This document shows, one piece after another, positions 3,830 to 5,578 of a stretch of 64,000 nt of DNA. The notes under the pieces were generated by a model. The model was not told the origin of the DNA, did no database searches, and saw only the letters and a program-made list of their open reading frames with translations. How positions within the stretch are numbered: position 1 is the first letter of the stretch; each line of letters begins with the position of its first letter. Origin of the DNA: Candidatus Danuiimicrobium aquiferis (GTDB lineage Bacteria > Omnitrophota > Omnitrophia > Omnitrophales > Danuiimicrobiaceae); the NCBI GenBank assembly GCA_001804285.1, contig MHFR01000037.1, positions 85,952 through 149,951 on the forward strand, written 5' to 3'. Both the position numbers and the translations under genes were made by a program.

Positions 3830-5578
3830 CTACATGCTTTTGAAAAATATTTTTTGGATTGTAAATTCCGATCCGTAAAATTGCTTCAATTCCGTTTCCA
3901 AGTCTTGACCACTATTAAACACCTTTTTCTTTGGAATAAAAAAGAACAAATCCGGTGGCTGCGGAAGCACGGATGATTCTTGCTCATCCAGTCGTCGATA
4001 TAGATGGACAGCAAGTTTCGGGTCGTATCGAATTTCTCTGAATTGATGGAAACGCGGCTCAGGAATGTTTTCCCACGGGTAGTCCGTCTTGTTGATATCG
4101 ATTTTTTCGTATCGGTTCCATTCTAAGTACTGAACTAAATAAGCCATACCGAACAAATCTAAGTCCGATAAAATATATTTTCTTGGAATCACCCATTTTG
4201 CATTATTGATTTCGGACAAACCCTGTAGCGCTAAACCTCCATACACTTTTAACCCTGTGTAAAACATGATTGGATATTCACCATAAGTAATAAATACCGA
4301 ATCATTGGGTTTTGCATGTTTACTCAAAAAATCAATCATCGCTTTGGTAGCTCCCTCGACGGGATGAACAATTTCATTTGTTAGCTCAATCAAGGGTAAA
4401 GCAACCTCTGTTCGGGCACTCTCTCTTTCATGAAAAAGAAAATTCATAGCCAAATTGCCCGCAATATTTAATAAGTTAGTAAACACAACCACTACTATAA
4501 TGCAACCTGCAATTAATACGCTGCGTCTCCAAAGCAAATTAATTAAAAGCGCTAAAAGAATCGCTAAGACTGGAAAAAGACCAACCAAATATCTAAGGTT
4601 AAAAGACGGGCCTAACGTTGATATCCCGATTGTACTTAGGGTAATAAGAACCAAAAGGACAATAATTTGTTTCTGTAAGTGAGAAAATTTTTTAAAATCG
4701 CCCCGAAAACGCAAGATGTATATACATAATGGGATCAATAGAAATAATATTAAGGGTACAACATAACTATTAATTTCATACAAGTACCCCAAAAACCTGC
4801 TAAAAATCGAGAAAAAATTAAAGGAAATTTCACGGCTCGAATGAGTGAATGGTTGAAAAAAGAAAAACCAAGGGCCTTGAACCAAAACCGATACAAATAA
4901 TATTTTTAATAAGCTCATCCGATCTTTGGGGTTGGCCAGGCTATAAATAAATATCGAAAAGTAGATAGCGATCCAAGCCATATAGTTGGAATGAAAAAGA
5001 AGATATAAAGTAATCAATAAACTCCCTTTAGAGAAGCGGCTTGATGATATAAAAGCAATACTTTGAATTGCCCACATAGTGAAAAAAATGACGAGCGCGT
5101 AATACCTGCATTGTCTTACATACAAAATAAAAGGCACGCAAAAAGCAAGAAGGACGAACGAAAGAAACGCTGTCCTGCGATCAAATATTCGACAAGAAAA
5201 AGAATAAAGCAAAAGCAAGGTTATGAAACCGAATAATGCAAAAGGAAGCCGGCCGGCTAACTCGGAAACCCCAAAAAGCTTTATAGAAAATGCTGCAAGA
5301 TAAAATTGAAGCCACGGAGTCCACGCCCACACCCCCCCCCAAGCGGCTCCAAGTTTGCCCGGCCCTTGATAGTAGGAGTTGAATCCATCTGTTACTTTGG
5401 GCACTCCATATTGCAAAACTGTTTTTGCGACTAAAGCCGTTTCCGCTTCGTCTTGCCAAAAACATGGCTTCTGCAGATTAAAAAAAATGAAAAAAAATGA
5501 AAATGAAAAAAAAAGTATTAAAAAAATATTTTTTTTAGCCCAACTTATAAAACGGACAGCATCTAACGTGAAATTCAT
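3830..5578 (-). CDS. PMT_2 / GT-C family membrane glycosyltransferase (ArnT/PMT-like)
   Basis: 582 aa and polytopic. FWQDEAETALVAKTVLQYGVPKVTDG lies in the first loop and resembles the ORF at 1..1103. Contains a G9 homopolymer at 5332-5340. Confidence 0.65.
   Translation of the reverse strand: MNFTLDAVRFISWAKKNIFLILFFSFSFFFIFFNLQKPCFWQDEAETALVAKTVLQYGVPKVTDGFNSYYQGPGKLGAAWGGVWAWTPWLQFYLAAFSIKLFGVSELAGRLPFALFGFITLLLLYSFSCRIFDRRTAFLSFVLLAFCVPFILYVRQCRYYALVIFFTMWAIQSIAFISSSRFSKGSLLITLYLLFHSNYMAWIAIYFSIFIYSLANPKDRMSLLKILFVSVLVQGPWFFFFQPFTHSSREISFNFFSIFSRFLGYLYEINSYVVPLILFLLIPLCIYILRFRGDFKKFSHLQKQIIVLLVLITLSTIGISTLGPSFNLRYLVGLFPVLAILLALLINLLWRRSVLIAGCIIVVVVFTNLLNIAGNLAMNFLFHERESARTEVALPLIELTNEIVHPVEGATKAMIDFLSKHAKPNDSVFITYGEYPIMFYTGLKVYGGLALQGLSEINNAKWVIPRKYILSDLDLFGMAYLVQYLEWNRYEKIDINKTDYPWENIPEPRFHQFREIRYDPKLAVHLYRRLDEQESSVLPQPPDLFFFIPKKKVFNSGQDLETELKQFYGSEFTIQKIFFKSM

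Follow-up and report, generated by a model that had tools for sequence, protein, structure and literature searches.

Poly-G/C contingency loci are found in glycosyltransferase genes of Campylobacter jejuni and Helicobacter pylori, such as cgtA, wlaN and futA/futB, and both bacteria lack a full mismatch-repair system. The pgl enzymes of Neisseria are soluble or peripheral proteins and are not known to include GT-C glycosyltransferases. ArnT is the transferase that adds 4-amino-4-deoxy-L-arabinose to lipid A. The Neisseria pgl pilin-glycosylation genes, for example pglA, carry poly-G tracts and are phase-variable (PMC10425976, PMC5953494). Their tract lengths differ among isolates, the ON and OFF states are documented, and dozens of repeat-bearing loci occur genome-wide. 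The homopolymers of C. jejuni vary among clonal isolates (PMC5135748). The Pseudomonas aeruginosa pilin arabinosyltransferase TfpW consists of a GT-C domain with a C-terminal TPR domain, and its gene lies directly downstream of the pilin gene (10.1101/2020.04.19.049825).

The window analysed here is a 64-kb stretch of the genome of Candidatus Danuiimicrobium aquiferis, an uncultured member of the Omnitrophota from groundwater. This lineage is suspected of epibiotic or predatory life. Within a type IV pilus cluster the window holds a GT-C glycosyltransferase gene that carries, near its 5' end, a run of nine G residues (Table 1). The run is real and lineage-specific; it is probably an incidental homopolymer and is not demonstrated as a switch. 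The initial annotation had proposed that it might work as a slipped-strand phase-variation switch, a reading that is unproven and, on the evidence below, disfavoured: the run is uniform, variant proteins are not on record, the orthologues have no tract, and G/C tracts are no commoner in the window than expected.

Table 1. Features of the G9 locus in window coordinates (columns: feature, position, strand, basis)
G9 homopolymer (C9 on +)	5332..5340	(-)	sequence; same G9 in 15 independent contigs
A/T homopolymer cluster, codons 15-33, first transmembrane helix	5480..5536	(-)	sequence
GT-C fold glycosyltransferase, 582 aa, ArnT/PMT-like	3830..5578	(-)	Pfam, profile, AF2, Foldseek
Upstream GT-C + C-terminal TPR, 622 aa, TfpW-like architecture	5575..7443	(-)	Pfam PMT_2 + many TPR families
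Intrinsic-terminator-like hairpin, then T run; between pilin and TPR-GT-C	7458..7500	(-)	sequence
Type IV pilin-like gene, 143 aa, N-terminal methylation motif	7514..7945	(-)	PF07963, TIGR02532
Sigma-54 promoter-like site TGGCACGGTAGTTGT upstream of pilin gene	8002..8016	(-)	pattern, one mismatch
Second pilin-like gene, N_methyl motif	8165..8818	(-)	domain profiles
PilR-like sigma-54 response regulator	8787..10169	(-)	Pfam
PilS-like histidine kinase	10549..11787	(-)	Pfam
B12-binding radical SAM enzyme, downstream of G9 gene	2311..3708	(-)	domain profiles
SAM methyltransferase, downstream of G9 gene	1121..2035	(-)	domain profiles

Exactly nine C residues stand on the + strand at 5332-5340 (...CCCACA CCCCCCCCC AAGCGG...) and read as G9 on the coding strand of ORF 3830-5578. 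They form nt 239-247 of the ORF, 14% into the gene, where codons 80-83 (TGG GGG GGG GTG) specify W80, G81, G82 and V83; the surrounding translation is GAAWGGVWAWTPW. The shifted frames stop 16 or 49 codons on. The predicted slip products are 98 aa for G8, 132 aa for G10, 131 aa for G7 and 99 aa for G11, and G6 and G12 are predicted to keep the reading frame. A +/-1 slip leaves only 82-83 native residues. The run thus combines two marks of a contingency locus, the tract length within an ORF and a premature stop upon a one-unit change, the length being judged by the PhasomeIt cut-off for Neisseria, G>=9 (PMC5953494). Coordinates, strand and translation had been given correctly in the initial annotation, and the truncation that it expected from a +/-1 slip agrees with the predicted 98 and 132 aa products.

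The 582-aa protein is a genuine GT-C glycosyltransferase as judged from profile matches and its predicted fold, in agreement with the identity first assigned to it. It matched Pfam PF13231 PMT_2 with E=1.5e-8 and 35.5 bits (cut-off 26.1), and a profile search matched it to ArnT 5EZM at 1.6e-8. The AlphaFold2 model has a pLDDT of 88.3 and a pTM of 0.90. The best 42 Foldseek PDB matches of the model are GT-C enzymes without exception (42/42), and include ArnT, STT3/PglB/AglB, ALG9/12, DPY19, Aft/Emb and Pmt. The protein has a membrane domain of ~11-13 helices (residues ~7-381) followed by a C-terminal alpha/beta domain (~395-582). ArnT (PDB 5EZM/5F15) is the top match by both profile and fold (Foldseek 4.6e-9, TM ~0.5), and its acidic first-loop motif has a counterpart here. 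Unlike ArnT, with which it shares only 11-13% identity, the protein is encoded in a pilus cluster, not in a setting of lipid A modification. W41, D43 and E44 are invariant across 22 homologues (WQDEAETALVA, first loop), and by analogy with ArnT the D43-E44 loop would be extracytoplasmic. The G9 run falls in a poorly conserved stretch of this first extracytoplasmic loop, which was modelled with lower confidence (pLDDT 62, residues 71-80). The GC content of the gene, 0.370, is the lowest in the window.

The genes around the run belong to a type IV pilus cluster, and the pilin-linked context described in the initial annotation is upheld. The GT-C+TPR gene begins 71 nt downstream of the 143-aa pilin, which scored above the cut-off for the TIGR02532 prepilin N-terminal domain (NCBIfam) and below it for a PilA model, and which is probably the major pilin. 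The stop of the GT-C+TPR gene and the start of its neighbour, the G9 gene, share 4 bp (ATGA), and this overlap suggests that the two genes may be translationally coupled. Like TfpW, the upstream protein joins a GT-C domain to a C-terminal TPR domain and is encoded just after a pilin, a likeness of architecture. A further likeness is that ArnT serves as the closest structural template for TfpW as well as here. Unlike TfpW, the G9-gene protein has no TPR domain; it is a second GT-C enzyme, with no BLASTP similarity to its neighbour. TfpW is not, to our knowledge, phase-variable.

Five orthologues of the G9 gene, with ~42% identity, were found in the same pilus context. In the orthologous loci an adjacent GT2 gene (PF00535) is present, and this GT2 could be the source of a polyprenyl-phosphate-linked sugar donor; a GT2 was not seen in the annotated part of the 64-kb window. 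The place of the radical SAM and methyltransferase genes is taken in these loci by an MptA_B-like GT-C and the GT2. The two adjacent GT-C enzymes of the window probably act together to glycosylate the type IV pilin or some other target in the envelope. The pilin, the TfpW-like GT-C+TPR enzyme and the second GT-C form a conserved module of the type IV pilus cluster in this bacterium and its relatives, and this module is a more durable by-product of the analysis than the G9 run itself.

Tract length was compared in contigs from ENA, JGI, Logan and NCBI assemblies, which represent at least 10 samples of one Rifle-aquifer Omnitrophota population. The run is spanned by 15 retrieved contigs, and all of them have G9 in frame, these being consensus contigs in which minority lengths are hidden. 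The whole gene is held by 13 of them, with identical DNA in 13/13. The population sampled comes from a single aquifer and is nearly clonal, with 1 SNP in 11.6 kb. Four NCBI MAGs encode the identical 582-aa protein. This exact ON protein is recorded in 21 contigs, the flanking radical SAM protein in 21 and the TPR-GT-C protein in 18, and because the ON count matches those of the flanking genes, the ON allele is present wherever a contig extends into the region. The cross-sample comparison that the initial annotation had recommended showed no length variation, with G9 in every contig of every sample. In this respect the locus is unlike C. jejuni, where lengths vary even among clonal isolates; here G9 is fixed in a near-clonal population.

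Variant products were also sought at the protein level. The predicted N-terminal products of G7, G8, G10 and G11 were not found by exact look-up among ~15 billion public proteins, nor were the in-frame products of G6 and G12 or three C-terminal restart products. Used as a homology query, the frameshifted N-terminal product returned the ON cluster and one other entry, P0124, and nothing else. P0124 was considered as an OFF allele and rejected. It is an alternative-frame ORF in which TGA is read as Trp, and its own 2.2 kb scaffold, which contains an N gap, has G9. Two scans of a metagenome contig collection, one for a pattern with a variable gap at the tract and one for the 33-nt flank downstream of it, gave 0 matches, and neither a peptide pattern nor a DNA flank was found in a genome contig collection. 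The variable-gap pattern recovers the retrieved loci, so the population is apparently absent from both collections.

Two fragments deserve mention. From SRR3990167 comes a 184-aa protein fragment (P0122) that differs at one amino acid and in which the tract region is in frame. A JGI contig, L016, terminates 23 nt past the tract. The break could come from length heterogeneity but also from low coverage, as the next contig of the same sample begins only at nt 1430 of the gene.

The orthologues do not carry the tract. G/C runs >=6 are absent from the gene in 5/5 orthologues, and runs >=7 are absent from ~50 kb of the orthologous loci. The codons equivalent to G9 are ATG GGG GAT GTG, TAT GGA GAT/GAC, TTT GGG GAT or GTT GAG AAT, with Y/M/F-G-D as the residues found at the site. 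Tract recurrence in homologues, a further mark of contingency loci, was thus seen in 0/5 orthologues, and on comparison of these sequences G9 is lineage-specific.

A single G9/C9 is no more than chance allows in 64 kb. A C9/G9 run is present in 22/100 dinucleotide-preserving shuffles of the window (mean 0.30). The expectation from synonymous-codon shuffling of the window's 28 genes (59 kb of coding sequence) was 0.13 runs of G>=9, as compared with 1 observed (P(>=1)=0.125), and with the gene's own codon usage 7% of shuffles produced G9 at the W-G-G-V site. The window's genes have fewer of the shorter G runs than expected, with 4 runs of G>=6 observed vs 11.1 expected and, besides G9, 0 of G>=7 vs 2.85 expected. 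Against this background G9 is a mild outlier. A second coding G/C tract was not found in the 59 kb of coding sequence. Over-representation of G/C tracts, which is also expected of contingency loci, was not observed within the 64-kb window, and nothing in it points to a phasome. The one other G/C run >=8 in the window, a G8 at 22198-22205, lies between ftsK and a MiaB-like gene. This run was rejected as a further contingency tract, since its position is intergenic, amid GC hairpins and upstream of the housekeeping MiaB-like gene. At 10284-10378 the C6 and C7 runs form the arms of hairpins.

The observations are most simply accommodated if G9 is a by-product of codon choice, with TGG GGG GGG GTG encoding W-G-G-V. 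Replication slippage is chemically favoured at such a run, as at any G9, so that rare frameshift nulls will appear at a higher rate there than in the remainder of the gene. In the sampled population the gene is kept ON at G9, with no indication of selection as a reversible switch, and the tract would have no regulatory role.

An unlikely alternative, though one that retains some weight, is that the run is a genuine contingency locus. Slips would then toggle the GT-C gene between ON (G9) and OFF (G8 and G10, with 98 and 132 aa products), giving some subpopulations that bear a pilus or surface glycan and others that lack it, for example for escape from pilus-specific phages or altered attachment, and the sampled conditions would favour ON. 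With nine residues the tract just reaches the accepted Neisseria poly-G threshold (G>=9, PMC5953494). The run lies near the 5' end, where a +/-1 slip would be a clean null that keeps the first transmembrane helix alone. The setting is a classic one, a surface-glycosylation GT-C gene that overlaps a TfpW-like gene beside pilins. Pilin glycosylation guards P. aeruginosa against pilus phages (10.1101/150227), and the Neisseria pilin-glycosylation genes provide a poly-G phase-variable precedent (PMC10425976, PMC5953494). G9 also persists despite the general depletion of G runs, and the L016 contig breaks just past the tract. As in Neisseria pgl, a G tract lies within a glycosyltransferase frame in a pilin-glycosylation setting and a +/-1 slip truncates the product. 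As in the Campylobacter and Helicobacter loci, the gene encodes a surface-glycan transferase and has a G/C run >=8 in its 5' part. Unlike in Neisseria pgl, no length variation was found, no set of repeat-bearing loci was seen and the tract is absent from the orthologues. Against a contingency locus stand the lack of a length variant in the 15 contigs, the >=10 samples or the protein collection, the missing tract in 5/5 orthologues of the same context, and the absence of another coding G/C tract in 59 kb, with a count within chance.

A more specific version of this alternative holds that a working switch acts on the second pilus-linked GT-C in ultra-small groundwater Omnitrophota, so that ON cells would dominate in bulk samples while a standing OFF minority would survive phages that target the pilus or glycan. 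It is more doubtful still. If the switch were true, homopolymer phase variation of pilus glycosylation would reach an environmental candidate phylum, beyond a few animal pathogens, and G8/G9/G10 ratios would offer a simple metagenomic read-out of surface variation in uncultured cells. A literature search on Omnitrophota pili, glycosyltransferases and phase variation found nothing specific. With an incidental homopolymer as the preferred reading, the value of the locus is mostly cautionary: a lone glycosyltransferase G9 is within chance for a 64-kb window, and such a run is checkable in public assemblies, where this one is fixed in frame.

A role at the RNA or protein level, through transcriptional slippage or programmed frameshifting at G9 or at A8/T9, or through tuning of the loop by G6 and G12, is highly improbable. 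The five runs >=8 of the gene (A8, T9, T8, T8, G9) all lie within its first 260 nt (5/5), with P=0.0006 against synonymous shuffling for a cut chosen post hoc, and the lower-confidence loop would probably accept the gain or loss of one glycine. Recoding is unneeded, however, as the zero frame gives a full-length protein that is homologous end to end, whereas the shifted frames, with their early stops, have no homologues, and no record exists of the products of G6 and G12. The A/T runs, in turn, result from TTT and AAA codons in the Phe/Lys-rich first helix of a low-GC gene. On the + strand these are A9 at 5506-5514, T8 at 5529-5536, A8 at 5480-5487, A8 at 5490-5497 and A7 at 5520-5526, corresponding to A8, T7, T9, T8 and T8 on the coding strand of codons 15-33; the A9 and T8 previously noted between 5500 and 5540 are among them. 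Selected hypermutability was also considered for the clustering at the 5' end and was rejected, the cut being post hoc and the A/T runs being accounted for by their codons.

That G9 is an assembly or sequencing artefact, with a true run of different length or interrupted, is effectively refuted: some sequencing chemistries are error-prone at homopolymers, but the length preserves a 582-aa frame that is homologous to relatives throughout, and the run is genuine in the DNA because 15 contigs from different samples and assemblers (MEGAHIT-style k141, Logan, JGI, ANAN16 scaffolds and an NCBI MAG) agree on G9.

Two further elements of the pilus cluster were noted. Three public contigs stop at the terminator-like hairpin between the pilin and GT-C+TPR genes, with ends at 7453-7476. 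Across the window, matches to the sigma-54 pattern are not commoner than chance. The candidate site, upstream of the pilin gene, is placed in keeping with the PilR-like sigma-54 activator encoded nearby.

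The C9 run lies exactly at 5332-5340 of the plus strand and is read as G9 at nt 239-247 of the GT-C glycosyltransferase gene (ORF 3830-5578, minus strand). It forms the codons TGG GGG GGG GTG, which encode W80 G81 G82 V83 in the local translation GAAWGGVWAWTPW. The sequence bears out the initial annotation on the run, its place and its translation, and also on the A/T runs of the same gene: A9 (5506-5514), T8 (5529-5536), two A8 (5480-5497) and A7 (5520-5526). These A/T runs are a product of the TTT and AAA codons that encode a first helix rich in Phe and Lys. Of all genes in the window this one is lowest in GC (0.370) and densest in homopolymers, and its five runs of at least 8 all lie within nt 1-260 (P=0.0006 compared with synonymous shuffles, the cut being chosen post hoc).

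The other descriptive parts of that annotation, namely a GT-C glycosyltransferase, truncated by a +/-1 slip and set in a pilus context, were also confirmed. The product scores over the Pfam gathering cut-off for PMT_2 (PF13231), and a profile of 22 homologues matched ArnT (5EZM) at 1.6e-8. An AlphaFold2 model from the 22-homologue alignment (pLDDT 88.3, pTM 0.90) has GT-C enzymes as all of its best 42 PDB matches: ArnT, STT3/PglB/AglB, ALG9/12, DPY19, Aft/Emb and Pmt. W41, D43 and E44 are invariant in the homologue alignment, within WQDEAETALVA, the acidic first-loop motif of the GT-C superfamily. The G9-encoded residues are directly N-terminal to a nearly invariant WAWTPW motif. The G9-encoded stretch is itself unconserved, and the AlphaFold2 pLDDT at residues 71-80 is 62. 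Computed products are 98 aa for G8 and 132 aa for G10; G7 behaves like G10 and G11 like G8, while the frame is kept with G6 or G12. The stumps retain the first helix with D43-E44 and lose all remaining helices and the C-terminal domain. The G8 and G10 stumps would be expected to act as null alleles.

The gene lies within a cluster of pilin and pil-like genes, all on the minus strand. In Pseudomonas aeruginosa the pilin arabinosyltransferase TfpW is encoded by a GT-C+TPR gene immediately 3' of pilA (10.1101/2020.04.19.049825); by architecture, the GT-C+TPR gene at 5575-7443 has the same position 3' of the pilin gene here. Upstream of pilC, 13410-17553 holds two PilB-type ATPase genes in tandem, for products of 564 and 579 aa, together with a separate 173-aa protein that consists of an MshEN domain alone.

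Features of the pilus cluster, in gene order, followed by sites flanking a pilin gene
Feature	Position	Strand	Remark
Two PilB-like ATPases, MshEN-domain protein, PilC		-	first
PilS-like kinase and PilR-like sigma-54 activator		-	second
Two pilin-like genes		-	third
GT-C with C-terminal TPR domain (TPR-GT-C)	5575-7443	-	fourth
GT-C gene with G9	3830-5578	-	fifth; own ATG overlaps the stop of TPR-GT-C (ATGA)
B12-binding radical SAM enzyme and methyltransferase	1121-3708	-	last
Sigma-54-like site	8002-8016		upstream of pilin gene 7514-7945
Strong terminator-like hairpin	7458-7500		downstream of pilin gene 7514-7945

The nearest relatives of the G9 gene product have only ~42% identity. Their gene order is pilB/pilC, pilS/pilR, two pilins, TPR-GT-C, the orthologue, an MptA_B-like GT-C, GT2 and pilMNOPQ. 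This shared position makes the enzyme a conserved member of a pilus-embedded module with a predicted role in glycosylation. At the G9 site five orthologues read ATG GGG GAT GTG, TAT GGA GAT GTT, TAT GGA GAC ATC, TTT GGG GAT ATT and GTT GAG AAT GTC. No G/C run of at least 6 occurs in the five orthologous genes, and none of at least 7 across the orthologous loci (~50 kb in total). By this comparison G9 is unconserved among orthologues and arose in this lineage by Y/M/F-to-W and D-to-G changes together with GGG codon use. After the GT-C gene, four relatives' loci (L017, L019, L020, L021) carry the MptA_B-like GT-C, GT2 and pilMNOPQ, whereas the window has the radical SAM and methyltransferase genes (1121-3708). 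The GT-C pair has a GC of 0.37-0.38, the lowest of the window, against 0.456. The glycosylation cassette seems exchangeable.

G9 is not more than chance predicts. When the window was shuffled with its dinucleotides preserved, C9/G9 appeared in 22 of 100 trials, and overlapping C8/G8 matches number 3 in the window where 1.7 are expected. When synonymous codons were shuffled within each of 28 genes, with proteins and per-gene codon counts unchanged, the 59 kb of coding sequence was expected to contain 0.13 G≥9 runs (P=0.125). With W-G-G-V fixed and the gene's own glycine codons used (GGG 8/28), G9 appears at the site in 7% of shuffles. The same synonymous shuffle shows coding-strand G≥6 runs to be rarer than expected (4 against 11.1), and besides G9 the window genes have no coding-strand G≥7 run where 2.85 are expected. 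Since C runs are not depleted in these genes, this may reflect avoidance of Shine-Dalgarno-like G-rich mRNA rather than of slippage. G9 is therefore a mild outlier against a depleted background; a few such runs would still be expected in a megabase-size genome.

The organism is a Rifle-aquifer bacterium of the Omnitrophica (Omnitrophota), and four MAGs have the identical protein on deposit. The exact 582-aa in-frame (ON) protein and the flanking radical SAM gene are each on record in 21 contigs, and TPR-GT-C in 18. Contigs were also fetched via both neighbouring genes, against bias toward the ON protein. G9 was present in 15/15 retrieved contigs spanning the tract, all samples being from a single site and consensus contigs masking minority alleles; the 13 contigs with the whole gene are all DNA-identical to it. 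The population is near-clonal: over stretches of up to 11.6 kb it shows a single SNP, at window 8100. The G6, G7, G8, G10, G11 and G12 products and three C-terminal restart products had no exact match among ~15 billion proteins, a collection that under-represents proteins cut at contig ends. A homology search with the frameshifted N-terminal product returned only the ON cluster and the protein record P0124. As a frameshift product P0124 was rejected: it is an alternative-frame ORF in which TGA is read as Trp, and the 2.2-kb scaffold that carries it, which has a gap, also shows G9.

G9 is thus likely an incidental homopolymer in a gene that is stably ON. The nearest known mechanism is phase variation through poly-G tracts, as in Campylobacter and Helicobacter glycosyltransferases and in the pgl genes for pilin glycosylation in Neisseria (PMC10425976, PMC5953494). 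G9 reaches the Neisseria cut-off of G≥9 (PMC5953494). Tract length, frameshift effect and functional class of the gene are as in contingency loci. Length polymorphism among assemblies and tract recurrence or over-representation are missing, and G9 is therefore not filed as a contingency locus. JGI contig L016 stops 23 nt past the tract, an end compatible with length heterogeneity; low coverage is pointed to, because the same sample's next contig begins only at gene nt 1430. The switch of surface glycosylation proposed in the initial annotation gained no support. Uniform G9, absent variant products and tract-free orthologues disfavour phase variation on both population and comparative grounds, and a genuine switch is rather unlikely. 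If it were true, as G8 or G10 subpopulations in reads would indicate, it would be a known mechanism in an unusual lineage. Recoding or an artefact behind G9 is very improbable, and the run is not an artefact since 15 contigs from various assemblers all have G9.

There is no sign within the window of a set of contingency loci. Only one other G/C run of at least 8 is present, at 22198-22205, in the non-coding space that separates ftsK from a MiaB-like gene and amid GC-rich hairpins. Around this G8/C8 (22160-22270) are the hairpins TCCTCCCCC-TCGA-TGGGGGAGGA and CCTTCCCCC-GCAA-GGGGGGAAGG. For the MiaB-like methylthiotransferase, the true start is probably downstream of the listed GTG at 22226. In the pilS-pilR gap, the C6 and C7 runs (10284-10378) form arms of hairpins. 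This gap (10235-10552) has four short GC-rich hairpins of the same style that hold the window's C6 and C7 runs: ATCCCCGC-GGAA-GCGGGGAT, CCCCGGAC-TT-GTCCGGGG, CCCCGGGC-TT-GCCCGGGG and ATTCCCGC-TTTC-GCGGGAAT. They look REP- or MITE-like; some assemblies have a 105-aa ORF called there, without a Pfam match.

The scaffold that is the source of P0124 (L023, ANAN16-1_SAMN03202995 scaffold_169061; 1172-1625 corresponds to window 5511-6060) lacks window 6000-6060 (61 nt) within TPR-GT-C and has an N gap at window 5511-5602, covering the start of the G9 gene. Either misassembly at low coverage or a true deletion allele could account for this. The SNP at 8100 (A in the window, C in six loci) is the only one among 11 loci and lies upstream of the sigma-54-like promoter of the pilin gene. 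The public contigs L003, L007 and L015, three independent ones, stop at 7453-7476, within the terminator hairpin 3' of pilin 7514-7945. Co-existing strains may differ in the pilin region.

Two giant ORFs occupy 35134-51705 and 51881-62968. The 5523-aa product has NUDIX, PPDK_N, PEP-utilizer, DUF218 and inositol-monophosphatase domains; the 3695-aa product has zero Pfam matches. Omnitrophota are reported to have very long proteins as a trait (10.64898/2026.06.07.730766).
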